Positions 5,732 to 61,817 of a stretch of 64,000 bases of DNA are shown piece by piece. The translations under genes were made by a program, and so were the position numbers. Position 1 is the stretch's first letter; each line of letters starts with the position of its first letter. The DNA is from Bacteroidales bacterium (GTDB taxonomy: Bacteria; Bacteroidota; Bacteroidia; Bacteroidales; WCHB1-69). The notes below the pieces were generated by a model, which worked only from the letters and a program-made list of their open reading frames with translations, did no database searches and was not told where the DNA came from. Where the stretch lies: the NCBI GenBank assembly GCA_045534635.1, contig JAZSKB010000051.1, positions 4,663 through 68,662 on the forward strand, in the 5' to 3' direction.

Positions 5732-6651
5732 TCTAACATAAGAGACATAAAAGGCAATTGCAAAATTGTTTTGAATAACAGTTCAATATCTGAATGTTCT
5801 TTCCATTTGTGTTGTAATTTATCAGGCAGACAATCTTGAATTATTTCTGCATTGGTGACACGCCACATTCCCAAAAGTTCATAATTTTCTTTTTTCGTTG
5901 TTGGTTGAAATAAATACAAATTATCTATTTGATAATACAACATTATGTTGTTTAGTATCAATTCTTTATTTTTATGATTTGTTAATAACTCTTTTACGAT
6001 TAAGTCTCCATTTTGAAAAGAACAAAACGCCAAAGCACTTATTTGTTCATTAGTTTTTAGTGCAAAAATATTTCCTTTTGCTAAACGATAATCTTGAAAA
6101 ATTACTTTAAAATCGTCTATAGTTTTTTGTATGCAAAAATCTCTTTTTTGAGAATGTTCGTTATAAAATTGATATGCCAAAGCAATTTGATTATCTGTAA
6201 TTGGAAAAATTTTTTCCGATGCTTGACTATTTGTAAAAAAAACTTTATTTTTTTGATAACCAAATGCTTGTATATATCCTAATTGATTGTAAAAATTCAC
6301 CAACCATTTCTCTTGAGGAATAAGAACAGAAAACGCAATATTGTTTTGTTCATTAATAATAAATGATTTTTGTAATAAACTTTTCATCAATCCTTTTCCG
6401 CGAAATTCTGGCAAGGTAGCCGCTCCCGATATATATACAATATTGACCTTTTTACCAAAAAAAGTCATTGTATAAGGTAACATTTGAATAGCGGCAATTA
6501 CACGATTGTTGAAACGATATACTAAAGTATATTCTTTTTTGTATTTTTCACGAAAATACATATCTACAAAACATTCACTATCATCAGGAAAACAAATTTT
6601 CCATAGTTGTACCAAGTCATTAAAATCCGTATTTTGAGCAAAATCTATCAT
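5728..6651 (-). CDS. GNAT family N-acetyltransferase (Eis-like length)
   Basis: 307 aa. Acetyl-CoA pocket motif LPEFRGKGLMKSLL. ATGA stop/start overlap with the upstream gene. Confidence 0.7.
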   Translation of the reverse strand: MIDFAQNTDFNDLVQLWKICFPDDSECFVDMYFREKYKKEYTLVYRFNNRVIAAIQMLPYTMTFFGKKVNIVYISGAATLPEFRGKGLMKSLLQKSFIINEQNNIAFSVLIPQEKWLVNFYNQLGYIQAFGYQKNKVFFTNSQASEKIFPITDNQIALAYQFYNEHSQKRDFCIQKTIDDFKVIFQDYRLAKGNIFALKTNEQISALAFCSFQNGDLIVKELLTNHKNKELILNNIMLYYQIDNLYLFQPTTKKENYELLGMWRVTNAEIIQDCLPDKLQHKWKEHSDIELLFKTILQLPFMSLMLD

Positions 6652-7535
6652 TTCAAAATGGCATTGTATCTATGTAACATTTTATATGGTTGATAAGATA
6701 ATTTTGCTTTTCTTAAACCAGCCTCTCCCATATCTTCTTCTCTATTGATATAAACAATTTCATTTGGTAAAACACTCAAAAACAACTTGTTAATAATTGT
6801 ATATGCTCCTTTATAATTTGCAAGTGCTTTTTCTATATTTACATCAAAAGTAGAATTATTGATAAAACTTCCTAAAGTAAAAGCGATTACATTTCCTTCA
6901 ACACGCAAAACGCCTCCTATCATATCCAATTGTTCAAAATTAATTAGTGCTTTTTTTACAGCACAACTTTCTTGTTGCAATGAGCAATTTTCTTCGCCAC
7001 AATCATTTTCTTTTGACCACAATTCATGCATTGACAAACATTCTTTTATATCATTTTTTGTCATTGGATGAAATGTATAATTGTATGTCTTTTCAAATTG
7101 ATGAATGTGATTGCGTTTTGGTTGTAATTTCTTGCCAGACAACGAAATAAGATTTTCTTTCAAATACAAATATTCTGAACTATTTCTTTCATACGAAATT
7201 TCAAATTGATTAGGAAACATTTCTTCTAATTCTTTTTTCATAGAATCATTAAGGTTAACAAAAATCAATTGTTTTTTTTCTTGTTGAGTACTTTCTATCA
7301 ACTTTGATATTAATTTTTTTTTATCTCCATTTCCTATAGGAAAATTATAATAGATTTCATCAACCCCTCCACGAATTAAAAGCAATTGATTTTCAATAAT
7401 ATAATGCGGTAAAAAATGTTCTCCCCAAATAATGAAATTAACAAAATTGTGGGTACATATTTGTGACAATGAATTGAATAAAATAGGTTTTATTATTGAT
7501 TTATCTTCTATTGTTATCGGACGAAATTCCATCAT
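6648..7535 (-). CDS. DUF2156 domain protein (related to the C-terminal aminoacyl-transferase domain of MprF)
   Basis: 295 aa. The length and pattern are recalled as the standalone DUF2156 family. ATGA overlaps occur on both sides. Confidence 0.5.
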   Translation of the reverse strand: MMEFRPITIEDKSIIKPILFNSLSQICTHNFVNFIIWGEHFLPHYIIENQLLLIRGGVDEIYYNFPIGNGDKKKLISKLIESTQQEKKQLIFVNLNDSMKKELEEMFPNQFEISYERNSSEYLYLKENLISLSGKKLQPKRNHIHQFEKTYNYTFHPMTKNDIKECLSMHELWSKENDCGEENCSLQQESCAVKKALINFEQLDMIGGVLRVEGNVIAFTLGSFINNSTFDVNIEKALANYKGAYTIINKLFLSVLPNEIVYINREEDMGEAGLRKAKLSYQPYKMLHRYNAILK

Positions 7536-9049
7536 TTTTTACAATGTTCTTTTCTTAATAAATCGTTGATTGTCTTTACAGGAGAAAAAGTCGAAAGAGG
7601 TACGGAAACAAATATTGTCAACCAATTGGACATTGCTCCATTCCACAATCCCGGATTTTCTATTGCTTTGATATTTTTGCCTTCAAATGTTTTATTTGTA
7701 ACAAAAAAACGCTGATAATCAATATATTGATACAAATCAAAAGATTCTCCTTTATAATTTTTTGTTGCACAAACCAAATCTACAGGATTAAAAAATTGTG
7801 AACTTTCTAAAATATTTTTTTGTAATTGATTATCAAGATTAATTTCCGATGTTTCAACTATCTGTAAATTTTCTTCATTATTTTCTGTATTGTAAACCCA
7901 AAAAGGACCTCCTCCGGGTTCGCCTTCTTGTTTTACTACTCCACAAACACGTATCGGACGATTGAGTAATCGGTACAAATATTGTACTTTTTTTTCTTCG
8001 CTAAGTTGTTTGTAATAATCGGACAATTTTACAAAAAAACATTTTTGAAGAATATTTTCTGCTTTTTGAATATTTTCAGCTATTTTCGTTTGATTATCAA
8101 ATTGTTGTAAAACAGAAAAAATATCCTGTTGAAAATCTAACAACAAAGATGCTAAGATTTTTTTATATTTTATGGTATCTGCACGTAAATCGTCGGTAGT
8201 AACATTGTCAATATTTTTTATAAAAATAACATCTGCATCTATTTCATTAAGATTTTTTATCAAACTACCATGTCCTCCTGGACGAAAAACCAATCGATTG
8301 TTTTTATCTCTAAACAATTCATTGTTACAATCAAATGTCAAAGTATTTGTTGAAGAATGTTGAAAAGAATAAGTAACATCGAATTTTACATTAAACAAAA
8401 CTTCGTATTGATTGACAAAATTTGCTACATTTTGGCAAAATAAATCAGAGTGTTCTGGTGAAATCGTAAAATGAACACGAGCGACATTATTTTTATTTGT
8501 TGTATAAGCAACACTTTCTATCAAATGTTCTTCTATAGGAGTTCTTATTTCTTGATTATATTTATGAAAATGCAACAAACCTTTTGGCAAATGAAGATAA
8601 TTAAGACCTTTTTCAAACAAAAGATATTTAAAAATAGTTGTGTAATCTTTTTCTTGAATAAGTGTTTCTATTTGTAAACCATCTTGTTGCATTTTTTCTT
8701 TCAATTTGGGATAAAAAGCAAATGATGACAAATTTTCAACAACAACTTTTACCGATTCAGATTCAACATTTTCATTGATAAAAGTAACAATATCTTTAAA
8801 CATTCGAGTAGCCGCTCCCGAAGCAGGAACAAATTTTACAAGTTTTTTTTCTCCTACTTTCTTTTTATAATTGCCTAACATTGAATTAATTTTGTCTTCT
8901 TCAATAACATACAATCCATTGTTAGCAACAATTGGTGCGAACAATTCTACTTTTGATTTATCACAAGTTATTACGGACATTTGATTATTAATATCCGAAA
9001 TCGAAATACCTTGTTGAGAAATATCATTATAATCTTGTTCTGTAAACAC
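7532..9049 (-). CDS. DUF4301-like protein with a predicted UDP-sugar pyrophosphorylase-like nucleotidyltransferase fold
   Basis: 505 aa with an apparent GTG start. FVPASGAATRMFK and RPGGHGSL resemble UGPase-family glycine-rich and GHG motifs. Confidence 0.5.
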   Translation of the reverse strand: MFTEQDYNDISQQGISISDINNQMSVITCDKSKVELFAPIVANNGLYVIEEDKINSMLGNYKKKVGEKKLVKFVPASGAATRMFKDIVTFINENVESESVKVVVENLSSFAFYPKLKEKMQQDGLQIETLIQEKDYTTIFKYLLFEKGLNYLHLPKGLLHFHKYNQEIRTPIEEHLIESVAYTTNKNNVARVHFTISPEHSDLFCQNVANFVNQYEVLFNVKFDVTYSFQHSSTNTLTFDCNNELFRDKNNRLVFRPGGHGSLIKNLNEIDADVIFIKNIDNVTTDDLRADTIKYKKILASLLLDFQQDIFSVLQQFDNQTKIAENIQKAENILQKCFFVKLSDYYKQLSEEKKVQYLYRLLNRPIRVCGVVKQEGEPGGGPFWVYNTENNEENLQIVETSEINLDNQLQKNILESSQFFNPVDLVCATKNYKGESFDLYQYIDYQRFFVTNKTFEGKNIKAIENPGLWNGAMSNWLTIFVSVPLSTFSPVKTINDLLRKEHCKK

Positions 9050-12085: not shown

Positions 12086-13077
12086 TGAACAATTCAATAA
12101 AAACAATAGGAATACTAACTTCAGGAGGCGATGCCCCCGGAATGAATGCCGCTATTAGAGCCGCTACTCGTGCTGCTATTAATAATAATATAAATGTAAT
12201 AGGAATTCGTCGAGGATATCAAGGATTGATAGATAATGATACAATTCCTTTAGATTCTTATAGTGTACGAGGAATCATTCAACGCGGAGGAACAATGCTT
12301 TTGTCTGCCCGTTGTCCTGAATTCAAAACTACAGAAGGATTAGACAAAGCTATGCAAAATTTAAAAGCAAATAACATTGATGCTTTAATAGTTATAGGAG
12401 GAGATGGTACTTTTAGAGGTGCTAACGATTTGATAAATCGTTTCAATTTCCCTATTGTCGGTATTCCTGGAACAATAGACAATGATATTTATGGTACAGA
12501 ATATACTATAGGCTACGATACTTGTTTGAATACTGTTGTAGATGCAGTGGATAAACTTCGAGATACTGGTAGTTCTCACAATACTATATTTTTTGTAGAA
12601 GTTATGGGCAACGAATCGGGATTTGTTGCTATGAATAGCGGTTTAGCATGTGGAGCAGAAATAATTATGGTACCAGAACAACAAAATCAAATGAAAAAAG
12701 TTCGTGATTTTTTGAAAGAACGAGCAAGACGAAATAAGTCAAGTCTTATAATGGTTGCAGAAGGAGTAGAAGGAGGAGCCATGTCCATTGCAAAATTGTT
12801 AGAAAAAGAATTTCCTCAATTTAGTATAAGAGTATCTGTTTTAGGTCATATTCAACGAGGAGGAAGCCCCAGTTCAAAAGATAGAATTTCCGCAAGTGAA
12901 TTAGGAGTAGCCGCCGTTCAAGCCTTACTTGCAGGTCAAACAGCAGTAATGGTAGGATATGAACACAATAAAATTCATTTAGAATTGCTTAGTAAAGCAG
13001 TAAAAATGCACAAACGTATTAATTCTAATTTAATAAGTGTTGCAGAAAGTATTGGAACATTTACCCCAATAGATTAA
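12085..13077 (+). CDS. pfkA: ATP-dependent 6-phosphofructokinase
   Basis: 330 aa. Contains GILTSGGDAPGMNAAIR, IGGDGTFRGA, GIPGTIDNDI and LGHIQRGGSP motifs. TAATG overlap with nadC. Confidence 0.95.
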   Translation: MNNSIKTIGILTSGGDAPGMNAAIRAATRAAINNNINVIGIRRGYQGLIDNDTIPLDSYSVRGIIQRGGTMLLSARCPEFKTTEGLDKAMQNLKANNIDALIVIGGDGTFRGANDLINRFNFPIVGIPGTIDNDIYGTEYTIGYDTCLNTVVDAVDKLRDTGSSHNTIFFVEVMGNESGFVAMNSGLACGAEIIMVPEQQNQMKKVRDFLKERARRNKSSLIMVAEGVEGGAMSIAKLLEKEFPQFSIRVSVLGHIQRGGSPSSKDRISASELGVAAVQALLAGQTAVMVGYEHNKIHLELLSKAVKMHKRINSNLISVAESIGTFTPID

Positions 13078-27031: not shown

Positions 27032-29788
27032 TTAATTTCCATTCTTAATTTTTAATTGTTCTTCCAAATCTTGAATATTTATAATACGAACTTCGCGAAC
27101 TTTACTACCGATAGAAGGACCTACAATACCTTCTCTTTCAAGTTGGTCCATTATTCTTCCTGCTCTATTGTAACCTATTTTAAATTTACGTTGCAAGAAA
27201 GATGTTGAACCTTGTTGTTTTTCTACAACTTCACGAGCGGCATCATCGAACAAGGGGTCAAATTCGCCATCATCTGCCTGTTGTATAGTGGTTTCCGAAG
27301 CATCATCTGCCACTTCTGGCAATAAAAAGGCATCGGTATAACCATGTTGTTCTCCGATAAAAGCACATATTTTTTCTACTTCCGGAGTGTCAACAAGTGC
27401 ACATTGTACACGAGTAATATTACTACCTGTAGATATTAACATATCGCCTCGACCTATTAAATTGTTGGCACCAGTAGCATCTAAAATTGTTCGTGAGTCT
27501 ATTTTTGAAGATACCTTAAAAGCAATTCTCGCTGGGAAATTTGCTTTGATAATACCTGTAATAATATTTACAGAAGGACGTTGTGTTGCAATAATCAAAT
27601 GAATGCCTATTGCTCTTGCCAATTGTGCCAAACGGGCAATTGGTTGTTCTACTTCTCTTCCTGCTGTCATAATACAATCGGCAAATTCATCAAATACCAA
27701 TACAATATATGGAAGAAAACGATGTCCATTTTCTGGATTAAGACATCTTTTTTTGAATTTTTCGTTGTATTCTATAATATTTCTACATTCGGCACTTTTC
27801 AACAATTCGTACCGCATATCCATTTCGTTGCACAATGAATTTAATGTTTTTACTACTTTTTTAGTGTCGGTAATAATTGCTTCGGCAGAATCGGGTAATT
27901 TTGCTAAATAATGTCTTTCTATTCGTGCATACAATGTTAGTTCTACCTTTTTGGGGTCAACTAAAACAAATTTCAATTCGGCAGGATGTTTTTTGTACAA
28001 CAAAGATGTTAATACGGCGTTTAAACCTACCGATTTCCCTTGTCCGGTGGCTCCTGCCATTAAAACGTGAGGCATTTTTGCCAAATCGAAAACAAATACT
28101 TCATCGGAAATGGTTTTGCCTATTGCTATTGGCAATGCCATTTTTTCACTATTTTGAAATTTTTCTGATAAAATACATGTTTTCATTGGAACTATTTGAG
28201 GTGTTGTATTGGGAACTTCTATACCTATTGTTCCTTTGCCCGGTATTGGTGCAATAATTCTTATTCCTAATGCTGAAAGGCTCAAAGCAATATCATCTTC
28301 CAAATTTTTAATTTTAGAAATACGAATGCCCGGAGCAGGAACAATTTCATACAATGTAATGGTTGGTCCTTCTATTGCACTTATACTGGATATTTGTATT
28401 TTGTATGTTTCTAATGTATCTTTGATACGTTGTTTGTTTTTTGCTATTTCTGCAATTTTTTCTTCTTTTGTGCGAGTTACATTTGCATAATCTTCCAAAA
28501 AATCTGAACTTGGAAATTGAAAATTAGGCAATTCTGCACGAGGGTCGAATGGTCCAAATCTTGCACACAAGTCTTCGGCTGTCGTTAATTCTTCTCTTGT
28601 ATATTCTATTGGTTCTAATGATTCTTTATCAACATTTTGTTCTTCTTCTGTTTCTTCTGTTGGAATATCTACCACTTCATTGAACATTATTTGTTCATCA
28701 GTTGTTTCTTGAGATAAAATTTCTTCTTCTGTATCATCCAAAAGCACATCTTGACCGCCAAAAGTATCATTTTCAGGATATTCTTCTAAAATATTTTCTT
28801 TAGGCAATTCTACTGTTGTTACAGAAAATGTTAAACGTTCATCAATGGATATTTCTTCATTATTAATATCCTCTTTTTCTTTTAAAGAGGCTATATTCTC
28901 TTCTTTTAAAGATGGTTCTTCCGTTTTTTCTTCTTCTAAATTTATTTGTTTTTTCTTTTTTCTAAACAATTTTGTCCAAATACTCGGTTGTGACAATTGA
29001 GGTTTTTCTATTGTTTCTTCTGGTAAAGTTAAATCAGATGTTGTTTTATTTGTTTGTTCTGGTATTTCTTCGTCAATATCTTCGCATGTTGATTTTTTAT
29101 TTTTTATCAACAATTGCCAACCTCCTAATATTATCAAAATTGCTGAAGCATAAAATAATAGAAGTAAAATTACTCCAATAAAACCTATTTTTTGTTCTAA
29201 ATATAAAAATACATCTTGACATATTTCTCCACTACTCCATTCCGCAATATTGATAGTTGCCGAAAACAACGAAACCCAAATAATAATTGCAATTGTTATT
29301 ACTGTCGTTTTAAACAAAGGCAATATTGATACTTTAAACATCAATCGTACTGCATATAAGAAAAATAATAACAATACTCCAAATGCGGCTATCCCAAACC
29401 ATTTTTTTATAAATAAAAATGAAAAATACATACCCAAAACACCCAACATGTTTTTTACTCTTCCGTCTGCATTGATTTGGAAAAGATTGGTATTGAACAA
29501 ACTATCATCTGCATCGTGGGTGCCTAAAAAAGAAATAAAAGATAATAAAAGAAAAAAAGTAAATATTAACAAAAATAAACCATTCAACACCTTAAATGTG
29601 TCGGATTTCACAAATGCTAAAAAACTTGAACCCTTACTTGTAGATTTTTGTCCTTTGGAGGTGCTTTTTTGGGAAGAACGTTTATTTTTTACTTTCTTTT
29701 TCTTTTCGCCTTTCTCCAACTTTACAGCGGTTTTAGCAACTTGTTTCGACTGATTTACATTTACTTGAAACCTTTCTTTATTCGACAT
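27032..29788 (-). CDS. ftsK: DNA translocase FtsK/SpoIIIE
   Basis: 918 aa with N-terminal TM helices and an acidic linker. Walker A is GATGQGKS, the motor domain is present, and there is a C-terminal winged-helix gamma domain (LQRKFKIGYNRAGRIMDQLE). Confidence 0.93.
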   Translation of the reverse strand: MSNKERFQVNVNQSKQVAKTAVKLEKGEKKKKVKNKRSSQKSTSKGQKSTSKGSSFLAFVKSDTFKVLNGLFLLIFTFFLLLSFISFLGTHDADDSLFNTNLFQINADGRVKNMLGVLGMYFSFLFIKKWFGIAAFGVLLLFFLYAVRLMFKVSILPLFKTTVITIAIIIWVSLFSATINIAEWSSGEICQDVFLYLEQKIGFIGVILLLLFYASAILIILGGWQLLIKNKKSTCEDIDEEIPEQTNKTTSDLTLPEETIEKPQLSQPSIWTKLFRKKKKQINLEEEKTEEPSLKEENIASLKEKEDINNEEISIDERLTFSVTTVELPKENILEEYPENDTFGGQDVLLDDTEEEILSQETTDEQIMFNEVVDIPTEETEEEQNVDKESLEPIEYTREELTTAEDLCARFGPFDPRAELPNFQFPSSDFLEDYANVTRTKEEKIAEIAKNKQRIKDTLETYKIQISSISAIEGPTITLYEIVPAPGIRISKIKNLEDDIALSLSALGIRIIAPIPGKGTIGIEVPNTTPQIVPMKTCILSEKFQNSEKMALPIAIGKTISDEVFVFDLAKMPHVLMAGATGQGKSVGLNAVLTSLLYKKHPAELKFVLVDPKKVELTLYARIERHYLAKLPDSAEAIITDTKKVVKTLNSLCNEMDMRYELLKSAECRNIIEYNEKFKKRCLNPENGHRFLPYIVLVFDEFADCIMTAGREVEQPIARLAQLARAIGIHLIIATQRPSVNIITGIIKANFPARIAFKVSSKIDSRTILDATGANNLIGRGDMLISTGSNITRVQCALVDTPEVEKICAFIGEQHGYTDAFLLPEVADDASETTIQQADDGEFDPLFDDAAREVVEKQQGSTSFLQRKFKIGYNRAGRIMDQLEREGIVGPSIGSKVREVRIINIQDLEEQLKIKNGN

Positions 29789-29867
29789 GTGTAATCAACT
29801 CAAAAATAAATAAAACATTTATTATCAAATAATTATATATTTGTATCTATACAAAATACTCATTTTA

Positions 29868-29875
29868 CAAAGATA
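29868..29875 (-). promoter_or_regulatory. -7 box (TATCTTTG, minus strand) for ftsK
   Basis: Exact TAnnTTTG match ~80 nt upstream of the ftsK ATG. Confidence 0.45.
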
Positions 29876-30081
29876 ATTATTTGATATAATGAGATAATTC
29901 GCTCTAATTATAAATTGTAAACAACGGGGTGTTAATTAATAATGGATAAATACAAAGAGACAAGATACAAAATATTGTTTGTTGATGAGAGCAGATAGGA
30001 AAGATTTTCCAAGATAGACAATCCATTGGAAAAATTGTCAAAAGTATAGAAGAAAGTAGGTTTCGTATTAATTTTTTTTTG

Positions 30082-30089
30082 TATCTTTG
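30082..30089 (+). promoter_or_regulatory. -7 box (TATCTTTG) driving leader repeat copy 1 and gene 30210..31064
   Basis: Exact TAnnTTTG match directly 5' of the conserved leader. Confidence 0.5.
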
Positions 30090-30096
30090 CAAAATG

Positions 30097-30185
30097 AAAC
30101 AACCTTTTTGTTGTGGTTTAGATGGTTCTAAATGCAACCTCAGCTGTCAAAACTGCGGTAAAAGGTAAAGAAGTAAAAATTAGAG
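30097..30185 (+). repeat. Leader repeat R1, copy 1
   Basis: AAACAACCTTTTTGTTGTGGTTTAGATGG...CTCAGCTGTCAAAACTGCGGTAAAAGGTAAAGAAGTAAAAATTAGAG. It ends 25 nt before the ATG at 30210. Copies are at 36259 and 37967. Confidence 0.8.
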
Positions 30186-30209
30186 AGTACCAAAATACCA
30201 CAACCATTC

Positions 30210-31064
30210 ATGAAAGAACTATTTTTTTACATACGATTTGTCTTGTTGCTAATCCTCCCTTGTTTTTCCGCCAAAGCACAAACAGAACGCCACCCGCTTT
30301 GTGACAGTCTGTATAAACATTCGGGAACCTTCTCCGCCGACTCCTCCGTCTACAGTATGCGGATTGGCGACCGAACAATAGACTTCCCTTTATCGTTCAA
30401 AACATGGTGGGGACGAGCATATAGTGCTGAAACCACTTTCGTTGAAAATGGCACCATCTACATCTTCCGTGAGTACTCTTTTAATATTAATTTGGAGACA
30501 CCATGTATTTGCACATCTTTCTATTACATCATCCCTCACAAACATGCAGACCATCCTTCCCACCTGCAAAAAATGTTTTACCGCTGGGAAGACAGTACTT
30601 CATATTTCACCGAATCGGTCAATTACATCTATGAAGCGGGTGTAACGCTTGCACATAACAACTTAAGGGACATGCCACGACACTGGTACCCAATCAAAAA
30701 ATACGACGGAAAGTATTATCTCAGCATAGATTACCCCTATATGACCGAACTGTGCGACAGTGTTGAGGTATTTCACGGAATGGAACTATCCGTTTTACCC
30801 ATCCGGAATGTGTCGAAACAGGGCAACAATTACCATTATGAACTCTGTAACCTGTACGACAACAACAAGTGGTATCGTGTCACACTCTCTCCCTACCAGA
30901 ACAACAAAATGCTGTGGGTTCGCACCGTGGAAAATCCGGATGGAAAAATCAAAAAAGAATTAATGACGACGGAAAAACATGTCCAGCACTTCGACCTGAT
31001 AGAATGGGAATCCAGTGATCATATACCGAATGGACTTGAACACTATGACAAAATTGATTTTTAA
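30210..31064 (+). CDS. Hypothetical secreted protein (island cassette)
   Basis: 284 aa with signal peptide FVLLLILPCFSAKAQ. No domain recognised. GC-richer than the backbone. Confidence 0.55.
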   Translation: MKELFFYIRFVLLLILPCFSAKAQTERHPLCDSLYKHSGTFSADSSVYSMRIGDRTIDFPLSFKTWWGRAYSAETTFVENGTIYIFREYSFNINLETPCICTSFYYIIPHKHADHPSHLQKMFYRWEDSTSYFTESVNYIYEAGVTLAHNNLRDMPRHWYPIKKYDGKYYLSIDYPYMTELCDSVEVFHGMELSVLPIRNVSKQGNNYHYELCNLYDNNKWYRVTLSPYQNNKMLWVRTVENPDGKIKKELMTTEKHVQHFDLIEWESSDHIPNGLEHYDKIDF

Positions 31065-31101
31065 CAGATACATCTCCATAATAACCATTGTGAACTATAT
31101 T

Positions 31102-31132
31102 CTTTCATTATGTAAAAATAACATAATGAAAG
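31102..31132. terminator. Bidirectional hairpin between convergent island genes
   Basis: 11-bp perfect stem CTTTCATTATG/CATAATGAAAG. Confidence 0.55.
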
Positions 31133-31207
31133 TAATTGTTTTTGTCTTATCATTGCATATTGTTTATAAAAACATCTTTGACAAATCTTTTCACAATGGT
31201 GGTGTTG

Positions 31208-32128
31208 CTATCTATTGCGAATCTCTTCTTTGATATTTTTGTCACCGTATTTTTTTGCCTTTTTCAAATAAATCTCCTCTTTTTTCTTGTCACCTATACG
31301 ATTATACGCCTCTGCAATATTGAGTAACACCAACGCATCTCGTGGATTCGCTTCTTCTGCTCTTAACAACCACATCAAAGCGGAGTCTTCCTGCCCCATG
31401 ATATGATAGGTAGCCGCCATTATATTGAGACTAAAGACATCCTGCGGATATAGTCGCAACATACTTTGTGCAATGCTACGTATATAGCATATCTTCAAAG
31501 TATCTTGTATGGTCAGAGTATCAGAATTTGACAACGCATTATATAGTGTCTTCTCATAATCAAAAATTGAATATATCAGTATAGTGTCTATAGATTCAGT
31601 GATATTTGGATACTCCCATGCATTATTGTTTTTTTCAGCATGTTCAAGGGTTGACAGTATCTCATCTGTATAAGATTGCCATCGTCCGCTTTGGCTTAAT
31701 AGGTATATTTTCCCGAAACGCATGTCTAAACGGTCAGGATACCGTAGTATACCCTCTGAAATAATTAAAAGAGCGGAATCTGTCAAGAGGGAATCGTAAT
31801 ATTCCACACCATACATATATCCGGCAACATTCCCTATGCTGTCAGTCAAGGTGAACACTCCGGACACATCTATTCCTTCCGGAAGTTCTGTGGAAAGAAT
31901 AGGACCTTTTGAAACATGTGCCTTATTCACCCAATAATTGTATTCTGCAATGTAACGTTCTGCACTTTGGTCGTTACCGTAACGAATTTCGGACAATGTC
32001 TGCTCAATTGTAGCACTATCATTTTCACGCAAAGCTTTATAAAAGTTGTCATATACATTCTGAGCATCCGCGATTTCGCATGAAAAAGCATATAGCACTA
32101 CAACTACACTGATTATCAATTTTTTCAT
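31208..32128 (-). CDS. Hypothetical secreted TPR-like protein (island cassette)
   Basis: The start is taken at MKKLIISVVVVLYAFSC (32128), which lies downstream of the shared promoter. The C-terminal part looks like TPR helices (NIAEAYNRIGDKKKEEIYLKKA). Confidence 0.55.
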   Translation of the reverse strand: MKKLIISVVVVLYAFSCEIADAQNVYDNFYKALRENDSATIEQTLSEIRYGNDQSAERYIAEYNYWVNKAHVSKGPILSTELPEGIDVSGVFTLTDSIGNVAGYMYGVEYYDSLLTDSALLIISEGILRYPDRLDMRFGKIYLLSQSGRWQSYTDEILSTLEHAEKNNNAWEYPNITESIDTILIYSIFDYEKTLYNALSNSDTLTIQDTLKICYIRSIAQSMLRLYPQDVFSLNIMAATYHIMGQEDSALMWLLRAEEANPRDALVLLNIAEAYNRIGDKKKEEIYLKKAKKYGDKNIKEEIRNR

Positions 32129-32190
32129 AAATAAAAACATTAAAAATTTTGTAATTGCAAAAGTAATCAAAATTTTAAATACTGCCGATA
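32129..32190. repeat. Repeat R2, partial copy (promoter arm only) with minus-strand -7 box at 32158..32165
   Basis: CATAAATAAAAACATTAAAAATTTTGTAATTGCAAAAGTAATCAAAATTTTAAAT is nearly identical to 32974..33030. The minus strand carries TACTTTTG. Confidence 0.75.
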
Positions 32191-32199
32191 TATGCAAAA

Positions 32200-32973
32200 T
32201 CAAGGCAATTCATCCAGTTCAATGCTGACAACCGCGGTTTTTCCGCTGGACGAACCCACATATTTATAGACCAGATTACGGTTGGTGGCTTTAATGGTAC
32301 TAGTCAGACTTTGTGTTGTCACACCATTGACGACTAAATTCTCAATAATCCCTTTCTTCATTTCCGACAGATTATTATTCAAATTGTCAATATCAATAAC
32401 CGACTCATCGCATTCATATATGTAAACGAAACTTTTTTTATCCAACTGCACATCCTTAATCGTCAAGCCCCTGACCACTTCCATAGGAATTTGCATTTTC
32501 ACGTTGTCATAGACGGATTTCAGCAGCATTTCCGGATCGGCATCAGCTCCGGGCATGTTTGCTTTAAGCTCTTCAACAGTGAAGTATATACTGAAGTTCC
32601 TTTCTTTCCCGTCAATAAAAATCAACAGCAGATCCGCATTGGCCCTTATAACTGCTTCAAAAAGCTTTTTAAACGACTCGTTCTGATTATTGGCAAAACC
32701 TAAAAGTACATTGCTGCGCAAGGCGGCCTCATTTGAACGAAAGGAATCAAGATTCATCTGTCCTGCAACAACACCATAGGTTATTACAACCGTGTTATGC
32801 GAATAATCCATATTCTCAATCGACGTATACTCGTCCACCTGAATAGGGCATTCTTTCGCTACTTCTTTGATAATATTTTTAAGTTCCTTTTTGTTTTTTT
32901 GAACATTGCTGCCACATAAGACGTATGATAGCATCAAAGGCAACACAAGTATACTGATTATCAGTTTTTTCAT
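32200..32973 (-). CDS. Hypothetical lipoprotein (island cassette)
   Basis: 257 aa. MKKLIISILVLPLMLSYVLCG shares its first 7 codons with the gene at 31208..32128. Confidence 0.55.
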   Translation of the reverse strand: MKKLIISILVLPLMLSYVLCGSNVQKNKKELKNIIKEVAKECPIQVDEYTSIENMDYSHNTVVITYGVVAGQMNLDSFRSNEAALRSNVLLGFANNQNESFKKLFEAVIRANADLLLIFIDGKERNFSIYFTVEELKANMPGADADPEMLLKSVYDNVKMQIPMEVVRGLTIKDVQLDKKSFVYIYECDESVIDIDNLNNNLSEMKKGIIENLVVNGVTTQSLTSTIKATNRNLVYKYVGSSSGKTAVVSIELDELP

Positions 32974-33205
32974 AAATCAAAACATTGAAAATTTTGTAAT
33001 TGCAAAAGTAATCAAAATTTTAATTCTTAATAACTTTTCCTGTGAAAATTTTCCTTTGTTGCTTTATATCCGCAGTGGAATATATTCCGATTGGTTCGTC
33101 TCACAAGGACTGCTTTTTCAATTGCGGGAGGCAATATTCCGTGCATCTTTCCGTTATATAAAAATAACATTGGGAAACATCCATGCATAAAACAGGTTCA
33201 GTGCT
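32974..33205. repeat. Repeat R2, full copy a: divergent intergenic module (minus-strand -7 box at 33003..33010)
   Basis: Shares long identical strings with 35336..35630: GCAAAAGTAATCAAAATTTTAATT, TTCCTTTGTTGCTT, CCGATTGGTTCG.CTCACAAGGACT, CAATATTCCGTGCATCTTTCCGTTAT. Confidence 0.8.
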
Positions 33206-34201
33206 ATGAATATCAGAGACATCTTTGGTTTCCGCGAGCACCGGCACACGACGGAAAGATTGCGGCACGTGGCCTTCGGGCATGCCGCCACCGCCTGTGG
33301 TGCGATGGTGACGCTGGCTGCTTTCTATACATTATGGATACTGATCATGCATTGTACGATGGAGGACGATCCGCATCATCTCTTTGTCAAACAGATGAAG
33401 AGCGGCAACGTGGTCATAAAACGGCTCAACGCCTACCGCGACAGCTGCGGTGTTTTCCCGGAAGGTCTTGAAAGTATCGGCTTCCGTAAATTACACGGGG
33501 ATAACTTCTTCGGCGTCCAGAACCCCTTCTCTGTATATTATCACATTTTTGAGTATATCCGGCTGGACGACACCTCCTTCTATCTTGGATATGAGGATTG
33601 GTCTGGCGGAAGAGAACAATACTTGTCGTCCGAAGAACGGTGGCGGATGGTCATATATGGATGTGATGAGCATTCAGAAAGACTTCCTGACTACTATGAA
33701 GGTCGGGATGTTACTTCCGTCTATCTGCACGAATATGAAATAGCGGATCATCAGGACACCATACGGAAACTGCTGGAAACGCTTATAGATAACCGTAACG
33801 ATGCCGGACAGCAGTTCCTGCTGACGTTTTTCCACAGTTATGATACGGCATACAGCCATTTCTCCGAGGATTTCACATATAGGGAGGATACCGTTTATCG
33901 CATACGCCACAACAGCGTTTTACAAACATTTGACCTTTCGAAGCCTTATGCCTATCTGGACATGTTCAGCGATATTGACGGCTACCTTCTGATAAACGGG
34001 CATATCTGCTTTTTTTCTGATAGGTCATGGTATCCCATCGCTCGCCGAAGGCTGCATCAGACTGGCAGGGGACGGGTATTCACCGATCCTGTCAATTTAA
34101 AACCGAGCGTTGGCAACGACCAGTGCTGGTTTCTTGACATGGAGTTCCACTACTACGGTGGTAAAGCATCGCTACAGGGGACATGTATTCTTACATGGTA
34201 A
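33206..34201 (+). CDS. Hypothetical membrane-anchored protein (island cassette, most GC-rich segment)
   Basis: 331 aa with one N-terminal hydrophobic helix (MVTLAAFYTLWILIM). No domain recognised. Confidence 0.5.
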   Translation: MNIRDIFGFREHRHTTERLRHVAFGHAATACGAMVTLAAFYTLWILIMHCTMEDDPHHLFVKQMKSGNVVIKRLNAYRDSCGVFPEGLESIGFRKLHGDNFFGVQNPFSVYYHIFEYIRLDDTSFYLGYEDWSGGREQYLSSEERWRMVIYGCDEHSERLPDYYEGRDVTSVYLHEYEIADHQDTIRKLLETLIDNRNDAGQQFLLTFFHSYDTAYSHFSEDFTYREDTVYRIRHNSVLQTFDLSKPYAYLDMFSDIDGYLLINGHICFFSDRSWYPIARRRLHQTGRGRVFTDPVNLKPSVGNDQCWFLDMEFHYYGGKASLQGTCILTW

Positions 34202-34212
34202 AAAAATGCACG

Positions 34213-34410
34213 TCACCACGGCTGATGCTGTTGGAGAAAGATTTCCTTCACGCCATGTCTGGGGACCCCAATAAAATTCGGAAAAAAAACTCCCTTCATG
34301 GCGGATGATGTATGATTTCCCGTCCTGATGCACCCTTCAACTATGATAATCTTCTCCATTGGAGAGTTAAAATATTTTTTAAGAATTGATTGTATCTTTC
34401 TTTCAAGCAT
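34213..34410 (-). pseudogene. Possible N-terminal fragment of an AAA-type ATPase gene
   Basis: 65-aa ORF. MLERKIQSILKKYFNSPMEKIIIVEG.IRTG resembles the N-terminus (up to the P-loop position) of Bacteroidales AAA/DUF4143-type ATPases, but the P-loop is destroyed. Confidence 0.25.
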
Positions 34411-34459
34411 GGTCCGTCACATTTTCTATCCGATAAAAATACAACCTTTTCCGATTTTT

Positions 34460-35335
34460 TCATCCCTGACAGGCTTCGCAGAAACTGCTGGCGTTTTTGC
34501 GTAAATAAGCAACCAGCAACGCATCAATATTCTCTTCTTTATCTAAACGGGAAAATTTATCAACCAGATGAGACATTTTATTAAACATCGGATCCGATTC
34601 CTTCTCCTCCGTCCATTCGGTACAGCAGAAACGTTCGTTCTCCTCCGTCATAATTGTTTGCAACGCCTCCGCATGTTTCACAGCACCAATTTCACGATAG
34701 GCACGAATAAGAAGGTATTCTCCGTCAAAAGACTTCTTCCAACCTTCTCCTTCACAGACAATATTGTAGAAAATATCGATATAATAAAGGTAATAACATA
34801 TATCTTGCACGTGTTTATGTTCATCAGATAAATTTTTATCATAATGGAAATCGCTGCACCAATCTATAAGCTCCTCATCATAAAGGCTGTCAAACAGTTC
34901 GCGGGTCATACGGGGAAAGCGAGCAAGTTCGGCAGTTTTTTCAAACTGTTTCAAAATACTTGTTCTACGATAAAGATATATAGCTAACAACAGACAAGGA
35001 ATACTTCCGAAAAGCAGGGTTATCTTCAAAATGTCGAAACTACTGTATTTCTGCCAAATTTCCTCCAAACCCATTATAATGAATAGAAAAAATATTAATG
35101 GAATTAATGAAAAAAACAGCATAAGTGGAATATAGACCCACAGATTTAAACGCTCCCTCCGCCCTGTGGAACCAGTTGTGACTTCACAATAAGCGTAATG
35201 ACGTTTCGCACCGCAGTAGGGACAGGTACGCACAAACACCTCACCCTCTTTCTCTCGAATCTCATCCACCGTCTCATAACGGCCTTTGATAGGGATATGC
35301 TCTCCACACTTGCCGCAATTTACATAGTATTTCAT
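34460..35335 (-). CDS. Zinc-ribbon / two-TM protein with a DUF4375 (DMP19)-like C-terminal domain (island cassette)
   Basis: 291 aa. CGKCG...CPYCG zinc ribbon and two hydrophobic helices. The C-terminal helical domain tentatively resembles the DMP19/immunity-type fold. Confidence 0.5.
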   Translation of the reverse strand: MKYYVNCGKCGEHIPIKGRYETVDEIREKEGEVFVRTCPYCGAKRHYAYCEVTTGSTGRRERLNLWVYIPLMLFFSLIPLIFFLFIIMGLEEIWQKYSSFDILKITLLFGSIPCLLLAIYLYRRTSILKQFEKTAELARFPRMTRELFDSLYDEELIDWCSDFHYDKNLSDEHKHVQDICYYLYYIDIFYNIVCEGEGWKKSFDGEYLLIRAYREIGAVKHAEALQTIMTEENERFCCTEWTEEKESDPMFNKMSHLVDKFSRLDKEENIDALLVAYLRKNASSFCEACQG

Positions 35336-35630
35336 AACTTTATTTTTTAAATGGCAAAAGTAATCAAAATTTTAATTTTTTATAACTTTTCCTATGAAAT
35401 TTTTCCTTTGTTGCTTTTAATCTGTAGATGGGATATATTACCGATTGGTTCGCCTCACAAGGACTATTTTTTCAATAAAATAAACTTGCATTACGTTTTC
35501 TTCACTCATTCCACCTGCGTTTTTTCGGTTGCGGAACGCAATATTCCGTGCATCTTTCCGTTATGTAAGAAATAACATTTGGGAATATCCATAAAAAAAA
35601 CAGTATTAACAGTTTAAAGCAGATTCTATT
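35336..35630. repeat. Repeat R2, full copy b, with an internal ~55-nt insertion (minus-strand -7 box at 35355..35362)
   Basis: Same module as 32974..33205, plus extra sequence ATAAAATAAACTTGCATTACG...GGTTGCGGAACG between the two conserved arms. Confidence 0.8.
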
Positions 35631-36203
35631 ATGAAACAAATTATTCTACTCGTTGTCATTTTAATAATAGTCATTGCCATTCTGTTGCTGAAATTCAAAT
35701 TCCATTACCCTGATGTAACGAAAGATGCTTTTGTTGAAAAAAACAAATCAATGGAAAAAAGAGTGATTTTGATTGAAGAAATGAGTGAAGAACAATTGAA
35801 TGATGCCATTCATGAATTTATTGGCATGTACAAGGATAATATAGATATTTCTACTTTGGAAGAACCGCTTGTTACACGCTACGAAAAAGGATTTCTTCTC
35901 ACCTTTTCTGCAAACGTTGACTATGATTTGTTTTGCTTTTGGGTGAATTATCTTGTTTATTCCGATAAGGAACAGAAAGAAAGATATTCAGTTTACGGAT
36001 GGTATCCTTTCGGTGAAGTGGAACGTCAGAAAGAAACCATAAATTTCAGCGGTAAAACCATTATGCTTTACATTCCCAAAGAGGATGACGAATTTGATAA
36101 TGTGTATATAATTACACCTGACAATCAATATTATAAGAATGAGTTTGCTGGAACGACGAAGGCAATCTCCCCTCGTAAGGAACAATACCGCCTAAAACCT
36201 TAA
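35631..36203 (+). CDS. Hypothetical membrane-anchored protein (island cassette)
   Basis: 190 aa with N-terminal TM helix IILLVVILIIVIAILLL. Confidence 0.5.
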   Translation: MKQIILLVVILIIVIAILLLKFKFHYPDVTKDAFVEKNKSMEKRVILIEEMSEEQLNDAIHEFIGMYKDNIDISTLEEPLVTRYEKGFLLTFSANVDYDLFCFWVNYLVYSDKEQKERYSVYGWYPFGEVERQKETINFSGKTIMLYIPKEDDEFDNVYIITPDNQYYKNEFAGTTKAISPRKEQYRLKP

Positions 36204-36258
36204 TACCTCCGCATTCAAAAAGTGCAGTGATTCCCTTATTTTATACTGAATTTACGAT

Positions 36259-36347
36259 AAAACAACTCTTTTGTTGCGGTTTAGATAGTTTTATGTAACC
36301 TCGATTGTCAAAAACTGCGATGAAAGGAAAAAAATCGAAAATTAGAG
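36259..36347 (+). repeat. Leader repeat R1, copy 2
   Basis: AAACAACTCTTTTGTTGCGGTTTAGATAG...CTCGATTGTCAAAAACTGCGATGAAAGGAAAAAAATCGAAAATTAGAG. It ends 19 nt before the ATG at 36366. Confidence 0.75.
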
Positions 36348-36365
36348 GTTCCCAAAAATAAAATT

Positions 36366-36908
36366 ATGGCAAGAATAATAAAAATAACAAGGAGTTCATC
36401 TACAGGTTGGTGGGCATGGACAGCAGGAGATTGCTCTGGTTGGGCAAACTCAAAAAGAGAAGCAAGGCGACAAGCTAGAGAAGCTCTATCATCAGGAAAT
36501 TGTGATTGTGAAATAACTCCCCCAAACGGAGGTATTATCGTTAATAATAATTCATCAAATGAAGGAAATAGTACAATTTATTTCCCAGATACGAATGGAA
36601 AAATGAAGGAGTATCCTTTAGATGAAATAAATGAAAATACTGCTATGTGGTTGTTAGGTAGTTGTAATTATATAGAAGAAGACTCAACACCAGAAGAACG
36701 AGTTATTGCTCTTTTAAAAGTTTGGGATATTTATCAAGGAGATATAGTTTTATCTGATATTTTGGTAAATCATAATTTACAAGCAGAGGAATTTTATATT
36801 TTAGCCTCAAAAGAATGGAATTATATATTTATTAATATAGATAACGATGAAAACATTTCATGGACTTTTTCTGATACAGATCCTGATCCTGATTTTGGTA
36901 ACGAATAA
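36366..36908 (+). CDS. Hypothetical protein (island cassette)
   Basis: 180 aa, with no signal peptide and an acidic C-terminus. No domain recognised. Confidence 0.45.
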   Translation: MARIIKITRSSSTGWWAWTAGDCSGWANSKREARRQAREALSSGNCDCEITPPNGGIIVNNNSSNEGNSTIYFPDTNGKMKEYPLDEINENTAMWLLGSCNYIEEDSTPEERVIALLKVWDIYQGDIVLSDILVNHNLQAEEFYILASKEWNYIFINIDNDENISWTFSDTDPDPDFGNE

Positions 36909-37485
36909 TATATATGGGCAAACACCTTTCGGAACGGAAAAGGTAAAAAATGTTGACAATCTGTTTGTAGATTGTTCCGAAGTTACCAATATCAGTTGGA
37001 TGGAATACCTGTATTTCTTAAAGATCGAATACGGAGAAAATTCTCCGCAATATAAAGCTGCTGTTCCTGATACAACTTTGACCGGCTATTCTTTCAAACA
37101 TCCGACATACCGTAACTATCCTGTTGTGGGCATTACTTACGACCAAGCGTTAGCTTATGCCCGATGGCGAACCAAAGCTGCGAACATAATTTTGGAGCAA
37201 TCCAGCAAAAAATATCGTTATGAATATCTATTAGCTTCTGAAGAGGTTCTCCAACAAGCATTTTCACAACAAAAGAGCAAGTTGGGTCAATTGTCGGCAC
37301 TGCAAGCCGTAACATCAAAAAAAATGGTACATATTGATGACAATGCCAAAGAAATCACTTCCGACAAAACCATTGTTATCGGTGCTCAAGGAGAGCAATT
37401 GACATTTGAACCCTATCAAAAACCAGACGCTGCAACAAGTTTCCGTTGTATGGCAAGAGTTGTCAAATGTGTAAAAACGAAATAA
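36847..37485 (+). CDS. Short FGE-sulfatase/SUMF1-fold protein with signal peptide (island cassette)
   Basis: 212 aa. Contains EVTNISWMEY, YPVVGITYDQALAYARWR and a C-terminal SFRCMARV, typical of the formylglycine-generating-enzyme fold. Its 5' 62 nt overlap the preceding ORF. Confidence 0.55.
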   Translation: MKTFHGLFLIQILILILVTNNIYGQTPFGTEKVKNVDNLFVDCSEVTNISWMEYLYFLKIEYGENSPQYKAAVPDTTLTGYSFKHPTYRNYPVVGITYDQALAYARWRTKAANIILEQSSKKYRYEYLLASEEVLQQAFSQQKSKLGQLSALQAVTSKKMVHIDDNAKEITSDKTIVIGAQGEQLTFEPYQKPDAATSFRCMARVVKCVKTK

Positions 37486-37487
37486 GT

Positions 37488-37514
37488 AAGGGAGAAAAGA
37501 CAATCTCCCTTTTA
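37488..37514 (+). terminator. Hairpin terminator after the FGE-fold gene
   Basis: 8-bp stem AAGGGAGA/TCTCCCTT followed by TTTATAATT. Confidence 0.55.
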
Positions 37515-37920
37515 TAATTGATATTCAAAATGGTGATGAAGAAAGCCGCGAAAAGAATAAGATAAAGACACAACGCCCTCACCGAAAAGCATTCAACAGA
37601 CTAGGCATTATTAACTATTGTACCCGACACGTAGGGAGAATTAACTGTGAGCGATTATTATTTTTATCTATCTTCCGATAATGATGATTGGGGAATTGTA
37701 TTCTCAATTAGTGAATTAACCGAGTGGAAAATGATGAGGAAATAAATGAACAAGAACATCTTTAACACCAAAATCAACGACCAGAACACTTACTTTGGAA
37801 ACTTGCCCGATAGTACATGCTAGAAAAGAAATAATTTGCCTATGACACGTTTTGACATAGATGTGTTTTAATTTTGCAGCACAAAATGCAAAAAACTGAT
37901 TATCATAATTATTTTTTATG

Positions 37921-37928
37921 TATATTTG
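37921..37928 (+). promoter_or_regulatory. -7 box (TATATTTG) in front of leader repeat copy 3
   Basis: Exact TAnnTTTG match ~40 nt upstream of the conserved leader core. Confidence 0.45.
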
Positions 37929-37966
37929 CAGATTGAAAATATTGCAGTTTCAGTTTTAAAGGGAAT

Positions 37967-38013
37967 CTCAGCTGTCAAAAACTGCGGTAAAAGGAAAAAA
38001 GTAAAAATTAGAG
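37967..38013 (+). repeat. Leader repeat R1, copy 3 (3' core only, no downstream gene)
   Basis: CTCAGCTGTCAAAAACTGCGGTAAAAGGAAAAAAGTAAAAATTAGAG. It runs straight into a hairpin instead of a start codon. Confidence 0.75.
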
Positions 38014-38029
38014 ATAACCTCTAATTTTT
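38003..38029. terminator. Bidirectional hairpin at the right island boundary
   Basis: Stem AAAAATTAGAG/CTCTAATTTTT with loop ATAAC. Its left arm is the end of leader copy 3. Confidence 0.55.
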
Positions 38030-38412
38030 ATACCTTTGCTTCTAAAAAAAGTATCAATGGTTTTGCCACTTTTTTAAAAGAATTACATGGAATATCATAT
38101 TTCATACCATAAAAACCTTTATGTCCATATTTTGCAACCATTAAAGACATTCCTGTTTTAATTCCAGATAGATAGGTAACCTTTTCAATTTCATTATAAA
38201 AGATTCTTTTTCTTCGATGAAATATTCGCGTCAGAAAAAAAACTTCATAATATTCATCATAAAAATAAAAAATACGAAAAATGAATATAAAATATTAAAC
38301 CTATATAAATACTCAATGGTAGGTAGAATTTATTTATACATAAAACAAATAATGGTAGTACCAATTGTAATGTAATTACATTTCCCCAGTCAATACCAAC
38401 TTTTATTTTCAT
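38028..38412 (-). pseudogene. Possible frameshifted small membrane protein gene (two TM helices plus a bacterial-PH-like tail)
   Basis: The ATG at 38412 opens ~50 codons (MKIKVGIDWGNV...). The +1 frame continues ...YNEIEKVTYLSGIKTGMSLMVAKYGHKGFYGMKYD... to a stop at 38028. The junction lies in T-runs. Confidence 0.3.
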
Positions 38413-38493
38413 TTTTTAGTAATTTTTTACTATACAAAATTTTAAATCAAAGAAAGGAATTTTGAGAAGAAAGAGAATTTTTTGAGATATAAA

Positions 38494-39069
38494 TTAAACC
38501 AATCCAGCAAATCCCATAAAAGCCAACGCTAAAATACCTGCGGTGATAAGAGCAATAGGCATTCCTTGCATATTTTTTGGAGGCTCACACATTTCTATAT
38601 GTTCTCTACATCCAGCAAAAAGAATTAAAGCAAGAGCAAAACCTACGGCGGTGAAAAACGCATACAAGAGAGCACCTCCAAGATTGTAATTTTGTTGAAT
38701 AACCATAATAGATACACCTAAAACAGCACAATTGGTTGTAATTAGTGGTAAAAATATTCCTAATGCTTGATACAACGAAGGACTAATTTTTTTAAGTACA
38801 ATCTCTAACATTTGTACTAATGCAGCAATGATAAGAATATAACAAATAGTCTGTAAAAATACCAAATCAAGAGGAACAAGGATATATTGATAAACTAAAA
38901 AAGTTGCTAATGTTGCCATTGTAGTAACAAAAATTACAGCGGCCCCCATACCAGCAGATGTCGCTATTTTATTGGAAACACCCAAAAAAGGACAAATTCC
39001 TAAAAATTGAGAAAATACAATATTATTTACAAATACTGTCGAAATGATAATAAAAATTAAAGCGGTCAT
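38494..39069 (-). CDS. rnfA: Rnf electron transport complex subunit A
   Basis: 191 aa polytopic protein with RnfA/NqrE-type sequence (NNIVFSQFLGICPFLGVS). Confidence 0.92.
   Translation of the reverse strand: MTALIFIIISTVFVNNIVFSQFLGICPFLGVSNKIATSAGMGAAVIFVTTMATLATFLVYQYILVPLDLVFLQTICYILIIAALVQMLEIVLKKISPSLYQALGIFLPLITTNCAVLGVSIMVIQQNYNLGGALLYAFFTAVGFALALILFAGCREHIEMCEPPKNMQGMPIALITAGILALAFMGFAGLV

Positions 39070-61744: not shown

Positions 61745-61817
<73 letters not shown>

Follow-up and report, generated by a model that had tools for sequence, protein, structure and literature searches.

The window is a stretch of 64,000 nt from a 2.2-Mb genome of the Bacteroidales. Its ftsK-rnfA interval contains three copies of a promoter-leader sequence, and the same leader core is found in two more copies on contig 4 of this genome. 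Copy 1 is located next to ftsK in every contig of the species that covers the site and is followed by an ORF at 30210–31064. It is composed of a degenerate left end (CGCTCTAATTATAAATTG...), a remnant of a transposase N-terminus at 29942–30045 (approximately 100 nt, E = 7e-9 to the 5' part of the full element described below), a promoter, a leader and a right repeat. Copy 2 has no −7 box. Copy 3 is not followed by a gene, as an earlier note on this DNA had observed; no plus strand ORF of at least 40 aa starts within 38020–38216. It is without a gene because it faces a small, decaying gene that converges on it. Coordinates of these features are listed in Table 1.

Table 1. Features of the ftsK-rnfA site, in window positions, and the transposase gene of the full element, in positions of contig L043
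Feature	Position	Strand	Basis
Copy 1, internally deleted, MITE-like IS copy	29899–30191	+	
Strain-variable gene array, first IS right tip to conserved rnfA-side flank	30192–38289		
Copy 2, partial leader without promoter, ahead of ORF 36366–36908	36257–36353	+	
Copy 3, solo right end of an IS1169-like IS5-family IS	~37905–38019	+	alignment to genus consensus and to copies 1 and 2
TAnnTTTG, putative Bacteroidetes −7 promoter box, TATATTTG	37921–37928	+	
Perfect 11-bp hairpin, loop ATAAC (13 bp over 38001–38031, with one G-U)	38003–38029		folding
Inverted 15-nt fragment of the IS right tip, TAAAAATTAGAGGTT on the minus strand	38016–38030	−	exact match to consensus terminal repeat
270-bp segment present in the window, L073 and L077	38020–38289		
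Decayed small membrane-protein gene converging on the IS end	38028–38412	−	three-frame translations of the window, L073 and L077
Transposase gene of the full copy (DUF772 and DDE_Tnp_1)	L043: 1750–2748		

Copy 3 has an outward putative promoter, a leader of approximately 85–100 nt and a degenerate terminal inverted repeat, which reads ...GTAAAAATTAGAGATAACC where the consensus has ...GTAAAAATTAGAGGTTGCC. The sequence from about position 37905 to 38019 can be aligned to the leaders at 30072–30191 and 36257–36353, the −7 box of copy 1 included, and the match to copy 1 has an E value of 9e-10 (blastn). The box of copy 3 is positionally homologous to TAACTTTG in the consensus of the insertion sequence (IS) and to TATCTTTG in copy 1. 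No IS homology is present 5' of about position 37905. The TAnnTTTG box and the conserved leader core that the earlier note placed at 37921–38029 are both borne out; the core is a real third copy of the leader, and it ends at 38019. A 17-codon frame in the consensus was considered as a leader uORF and rejected, as it is destroyed in all three window copies.

The final bases of the copy 3 leader form a perfect hairpin with those that follow, also as first described. The left arm is AAAAATTAGAG (38003–38013) and the right arm is CTCTAATTTTT (38019–38029). The calculated stability is −12.5 kcal/mol compared with −2.1 ± 1.6 kcal/mol in shuffled sequences (z −6.6), and none of 200 shuffles equaled it. 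The hairpin had been termed a terminator, but it is not a canonical intrinsic one. A consensus scan reveals no Rho-independent terminator within 37700–38500, there are two G-C pairs among the 11–13 pairs of the stem, and the U-run of the plus strand falls within the stem. On the minus strand the hairpin is followed by a U-rich tail (ACTTTTTTCCTTTT / ACUUUUUUCCUUUU).

An exact-pattern scan of one genome per species gave 17 matches to the leader core in five rumen Bacteroidales MAGs, with buffalo, red deer and others as host animals, and one chance match in a Bacillus. The exact matches are often situated 20–250 nt from a contig end. A BLAST search with a 98-nt consensus shows 2–16 matches in each of the 7 other genomes of the genus (7/7) and none in genomes of other genera (0/23). 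A wide distribution was considered and discarded, since 300 genomes across the order gave two pattern hits with 2 mismatches, which are taken as chance. Among the genomes searched, the repeat is restricted to the genus. The 41 distinct copies have a common sharp 3' end at the terminal repeat, and the sequences that follow GGTTGCC are unrelated. Many copies are 95–100% identical. Beyond the tip, a start codon is found 10–40 nt away in many copies and a convergent gene is found elsewhere; in L017 the copy runs directly into the interior of a gene that reads as an NAD-dependent epimerase/dehydratase.

The leader represents the terminal 150–190 bp, approximately, of an IS5-family element, where the promoter is directed outward and is followed by about 100 nt and then by the repeat ...AAAAATTAGAGGTTGCC. 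The best-conserved copies remain similar further upstream, where a conserved spacer leads to the C-terminus of a transposase. Sister species have full copies of the element with its transposase, among them one in L043 (positions 1577–2922). The L043 copy encodes a 332-aa protein with DUF772 (1e-22) and DDE_Tnp_1 (9e-23) domains that scores 276 bits against the IS5-family model NF033581 of NCBIfam, where the cut-off is 140. Between the stop codon of the transposase and the right inverted repeat (IRR) are approximately 190 bp that contain the putative outward promoter and an A-rich leader, itself about 100 nt long. Three genomes (G304, G306 and G307) together have at least six sites where a leader lies 100–200 nt downstream of a transposase frame; the frames near leaders are intact in G306 and G304 and broken elsewhere.

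The left end of the element, GG(A/G)CA(C/T)CTCTAA... (GG(A/G)CA(C/T)CTCTAAAAATAGATAAAA...), is the inverted repeat of the right tip GGCAACCTCTAA, and approximately 10 of 12 positions pair when the right tip ...TTAGAGGTTGCC is compared with the left tip. The nearest annotated transposases are those of IS1169 (55.4% aa identity) and IS1168 (54.5%) of B. fragilis, and by transposase similarity the element is assigned to this IS1169/IS1168 clade. Promoter plus leader form the right end native to an IS5-family element whose putative promoter points outward, because the transposase, the inverted ends and a right-end layout like that of IS1169 are all present. The genome of the window shows no transposase match (the assembly is 97.9% complete, and repeats are often unassembled); its copies are non-autonomous derivatives only.

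The flanks of the IS copies are AT-rich (TTA, TAA, TTT). There is no consistent target-site duplication at L003, L021 or the window copies, and there is a possible TTAAAT duplication around a mini-element in L014. As a target-site duplication is not definable for any copy, transposition of the element is deduced from its structure and not from comparing a filled with an empty site. Many diverged copies start near the same point just 5' of the −7 box, as would be expected more readily of a short, discrete unit that moves or recombines than of an IS truncated at random. The L014 mini-element (about positions 400–503) is approximately 100 nt long and has the left end and the TATCTTTG box followed by a right end that is shortened; it is a candidate for a genuine MITE of the IS family. 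At L043 1480–1600, which is the same as L016 7620–7740, the left end of a G+C-richer relative of the IS is joined to the truncated leader of another copy (...AAAGGAAAAATAAG / GACACCTCTAAT...), and therefore the ends of these elements adjoin or nest elsewhere too.

The two contig 4 copies are found at a second island (positions 112000–130000 of contig 4 in G000, given here as L024). The island itself, at L024 8395–12235, has a higher G+C content and carries split HAD_SAK_2 frames, a REase-ARP/PD-(D/E)XK nuclease and a WYL protein. Its leaders are on the minus strand at 12367–12514 and 8207–8359, with an internally deleted IS on one side and a solo right end on the other. The solo right end is directly 5' of dnaE (4323–8177, minus strand), whose ATG is about 30 nt past the tip. 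The unit TAAAAATTAG, located just inside the right tip, is present two times in the consensus and three times in this dnaE-side copy (L024 8207–8245, minus strand).

The composition of the hairpin of copy 3 can be read from the same terminal repeat. The left arm is the IS terminal repeat and the right arm is an inverted copy of it; the arms are complementary because both consist of this sequence. At every other place where the 13-mer CCTCTAATTTTTA is seen it is complementary to the end of a leader, and the central bases of the hairpin fit the inverted tip (GAGGTTAT) better than the tip of copy 3 (GAGATAAC). As judged from these matches, the hairpin is two IS right tips placed tip-to-tip, one of them only 15–17 nt long. 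Local alignment shows no leader homology past the 15-nt inverted tip, the score of the leader body being no better than that of shuffles. A complete second leader, inverted, at 38011–38200 of the minus strand was rejected, as only the terminal 15 nt match. A remnant of a left end (IRL) as the right arm was also considered and is less likely, since the inverted right tip matches at 15/15 positions and the known left ends have no more than CTCTAA(TT) in common with the arm. The inverted fragment may have been left by a second IS end in inverted orientation, or it may be what is left at the center of a longer IR-IR palindrome that collapsed. The hairpin is restricted to one lineage (the window, L073 and L077) and is absent from all other copies examined. 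In L079 the same copy 3 leader ends ...GAGGTTGCC directly against AAATATT, without a hairpin. The initial description of a gene-less promoter-leader with a hairpin made from its last bases is correct; what it did not recognize is that this is the right end of an insertion sequence.

Contigs of the same species were located in public assemblies by means of the identical RnfA protein, and they provide ten contexts. Other strains have, in place of the gene array of the window, a Peptidase_M50 gene, a bPH_1 gene or no gene at all. In L074 and L080 the gap between ftsK and rnfA is 607 bp with only the deleted IS inside, and the tip GGTTGCC is followed directly by AAATATTAAATC..., corresponding to position 38290 of the window. 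In L072 the Peptidase_M50 gene and then a second promoter-leader are added; in L075, the bPH_1 gene and then a second complete deleted IS. Both additions are situated exactly between GGTTGCC and the flank AAATATTAAA. A comparison of the junction with relatives, proposed in the earlier note, gives both the island-less state (L074, L080) and variable genes. The note had also placed the right edge of the island at 37921–38029. From the alignment of these contigs the true right edge of the variable region is at 38289/38290 and not at 38029.

Two junctions are found at the distal end. At junction J1 (the window, L073 and L077) the leader end ...TTAGAGATAAC is followed by CTCTAATTTTT and 270 nt (38020–38289). 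At junction J2 the last leader ends ...GAGGTTGCC against position 38290, and the 270-bp segment is absent. This segment carries the small minus-strand gene on without a break across 38290. The gene lies next to rnfA and is broken at A/T homopolymer runs by frameshifts that vary from strain to strain; the hairpin overlaps its stop codon. It has no Pfam match and no homologue in the 7 other genomes of the genus. In the J2 strains it is cut mid-way by the IS tip. L079 combines the copy 3 promoter and 5' leader of the window with a copy 1-like 3' leader and junction J2, and L077 combines a copy 1-type 5' leader with junction J1. Each cargo type is seen with each junction type, four combinations in all, and the leaders are mosaic; crossovers have therefore taken place inside the leaders of about 100 nt. 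Among the readings first offered for the site, a scar of recombination between leader copies comes closest, in that genes are gained and lost between direct copies and the leaders are mosaic.

Immunity-like genes (DMP19-like and FGE-sulfatase-like) are also part of the array. Divergent genes within the island are separated by a second repeat family, unrelated to the first and richer in G+C, at 32992–33205 and 35344–35630 (also at 32095–32178 / 32940–33023). The adjacency of ftsK and the rnf operon is species-specific (sister species in L055–L060, compared with window 27032–39069). No empty site is found in the sister species, where ftsK and rnfA are on different contigs and the genes following rnfA vary; several of these are meso-diaminopimelate dehydrogenase-like as read from the N-terminus.

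These findings are very probably explained together by a solo right end of an IS5-family element, an array that recombines within its leaders and a hairpin made of two tips. This explanation builds on what is observed, namely the identity, termini and family of the element, the differences between strains, the mosaicism of the leaders and the make-up of the hairpin. The promoter within the IS end would fire outward and give an A-rich 5' UTR to adjacent DNA. As promoter and leader end at the tip, any DNA past the tip would gain a ready-made promoter and 5' UTR. At the solo end the promoter would yield only a transcript of about 95 nt, stopped by the hairpin, and the hairpin would also halt opposite-strand transcripts coming from rnfA; it could in this way act as a stop for transcription from both sides. 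The IS ends of the ftsK-rnfA site form an array in direct orientation with accessory genes between them, of which copy 3 is the last, distal member; directly repeated ends are seen at the contig 4 island also. Cargo would turn over by homologous recombination between IS-end copies and not by a transposase acting in trans, with a circle of a gene and one leader looping out between two leaders and re-entering at any leader. Junction J2 may alternatively represent an IS-adjacent deletion from a time when transposase was available.

The leader can be folded into a 14-bp stem (UUUUGUUGYGGUUU / AAACURCRRUGAAA) together with a pairing between the tip and an internal repeat. Base pairing is maintained in 91.5% of cells compared with 44–61% in slid controls, and the covariation is modest; there are 10 cells with compensatory changes, a count reached by 9 of 500 shuffles. 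The 105-nt transcript model has a delta G of −27.4 kcal/mol (z −4.4). In each right end the tip recurs in inverted orientation about 55 nt inward (GCAACCTC...GAGGTTGC here, GAGTTCT...AGAACTC in IS1169), found at 30125–30191 and 37953–38019 in the window and at L084 2270–2335 in IS1169. This internal repeat is kept across 45% protein divergence despite a wholly different sequence, and it may represent a stem in the RNA or a further binding site for the transposase. The predicted fold as a whole fits an RNA structure and fits equally two co-evolving transposase-binding sites, and it could point to an RNA function beyond that of being IS DNA. With Rfam 15, the only model to reach its threshold in the window is a tRNA at 61745–61817; over 37850–38100 with permissive E-values the best matches are 14–16 bits, compared with thresholds of 50–109, and a riboswitch or other known RNA was discarded on this basis.

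Other explanations can be compared with the one above. The locus might be a free-standing small-RNA gene made of domesticated IS sequence, whose product would be a structured RNA, about 95 nt long and terminated by the hairpin, that acts in trans, as an antisense RNA or as an insulator. The promoter box and the stable 105-nt model are consistent with this, as are the high proportion of paired cells with some compensatory changes and the presence of terminator-like palindromes within about 15 nt of other gene-less copies (L014, L009). On the other hand, the conservation is accounted for by recent transposition, given the near identity of many copies, and covariation between the internal repeat and the tip is equally expected for two transposase-binding sites. 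There is also no Rfam match, the hairpin is specific to one junction and missing from the same leader in L079, and its G-C-poor stem contains the plus strand U-run. A dedicated small-RNA gene is accordingly quite improbable, while a short non-coding transcript may arise as a by-product of the outward promoter of the IS. The hairpin might instead serve primarily as the terminator of the convergent minus-strand unit (the rnf operon and the small gene), with its share of the leader incidental or co-opted. It begins at the stop codon of the minus strand ORF 38028–38150, and ACUUUUUUCCUUUU, which follows it on that strand, is a better U-tract than that of the plus strand. However, the hairpin is not the ancestral native terminator because both arms are IS terminal repeat; in addition, the J2 strains have no hairpin yet have an identical rnfA, and the small gene to be served is a pseudogene. 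As a primary role this is unlikely, and as a co-opted function it is compatible with an IS end.

The earlier note had also suggested an unoccupied, attI-like cassette site. This was considered as an integron-like site of the attI or rAID-1 type to which a site-specific recombinase adds cassettes. Genes of other strains are indeed inserted exactly at the GGTTGCC boundary, the island has immunity-like genes, and rAID-1 clusters have integron-reminiscent repetitive intergenic sequences (bioRxiv 10.1101/471110). But no IntI-type recombinase is found near the window (contig 32) or the second island (contig 4), and the two tyrosine recombinases of the genome (PF00589) are on contigs 37 and 1, neither of them near the islands. 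No attC-like partner was noted; the cassette ends that were read have no imperfect palindromes of the attC type, and the units end in an IS right end or a whole deleted IS. What bounds the additions so precisely is the terminus of an IS encoding a DDE transposase, and the added pieces bring their own IS-end copy (a whole deleted IS in L075), as recombination between IS copies yields. The suggestion fails because there is no recombinase nearby and the added units carry IS ends; the integron/rAID reading was dropped for lack of a recombinase and can be regarded as extremely improbable. It is also rather improbable that the IS right end has been domesticated into a module for gene capture and expression, where the structured leader of about 100 nt, whose architecture is shared with IS1169, would be at once a portable promoter and 5' UTR, a recombination site for exchanging gene-plus-leader units between strains and, where no gene follows, a small RNA or insulator. 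If true, this would amount to integron-like cassettes without a dedicated integrase, built on fragments that lack a transposase.

What appears as a novel leader or an empty cassette site is an IS1169-like element of the IS5 family, an element of a known kind in a new host. The identity of the IS accounts jointly for the repeated leaders, the sharp boundary, the contig breaks in the MAGs, the gene-less copy and the perfect hairpin. It implies reuse of the outward putative promoter of an IS5-family element across a genus of rumen Bacteroidales, and would represent a natural case of mobile promoters that shape the turnover of accessory genes in gut anaerobes. In the genome of the window, IS-end fragments of 100–300 bp without a transposase mark two hotspots, the ftsK-rnfA site and the defence-like island on the dnaE side. 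Caution is warranted when "conserved 5' leaders" are annotated.

Several known systems are similar in part. The rAID-1 orphan-immunity clusters (Ross et al., bioRxiv 10.1101/471110) resemble the ftsK-rnfA site in having a GC-skewed accessory array, repetitive intergenic sequences and immunity-like genes. They differ in their association with a XerD-family recombinase, conserved at the head of the cluster; here 29800–38400 contains no recombinase ORF, and IS ends make up the repeats. IS26-type pseudo-compound transposons and translocatable units (IS6 family; PMC7986276) are likewise arrays of IS copies in direct orientation with cargo between them, and cargo is gained or lost beside an IS copy already in place, each unit consisting of one repeat and the DNA next to it. 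The direct orientation is found at the present site, but the IS is of another family, and in place of complete, transposase-encoding bounding copies, of which there are none, the repeats are end fragments of 100–300 bp without a transposase. The mosaic leaders here point to homologous recombination rather than to a conservative reaction catalyzed by a transposase.

The putative mobile promoters (Nijveen, Matus-Garcia and van Passel 2012, PMC3575422) are comparable in that a near-identical promoter is reused before unrelated genes, and insertion sequences took part in experimentally documented promoter capture (PMC3575422). The difference is that the vehicle is identified here as the terminal segment of a defined IS5-family element.

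The closest likeness is to IS1169 and IS1168 of Bacteroides fragilis, whose IS5-family transposases are 54–55% identical to the present one. IS1169 on pBFO18_1 has the same layout, i.e., the transposase stop codon, a TAAATTTG box, a leader of about 85 nt, the IRR and the ATG of nimD 12 nt further on. Its leader also has an internal inverted copy of the tip beside a conserved ...GCTGTC, with (T/C)CnGCTGnC as the shared motif, and in both elements the ATG of the neighboring gene is within about 12–20 nt of the terminal repeat. The promoters of IS1168, IS1169 and IS1186 are listed in a review as switching on nim and cfiA genes (PMC9330008). IS1169 and IS1168 activate nimD and nimA/B, and IS1186, also of the IS5 family, activates cfiA. 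While those promoters switch on genes, the present one is recognized from its sequence. The terminal repeats differ (GAGTTCTAT in IS1169, GGCAACCTCTAA here), the present host is an uncultured, 30%-GC genus of rumen Bacteroidales, and the genome of the window has non-autonomous pieces only. The genes next to the IS ends are not resistance genes, as in B. fragilis, but accessory, immunity-like and defence genes, and even dnaE.
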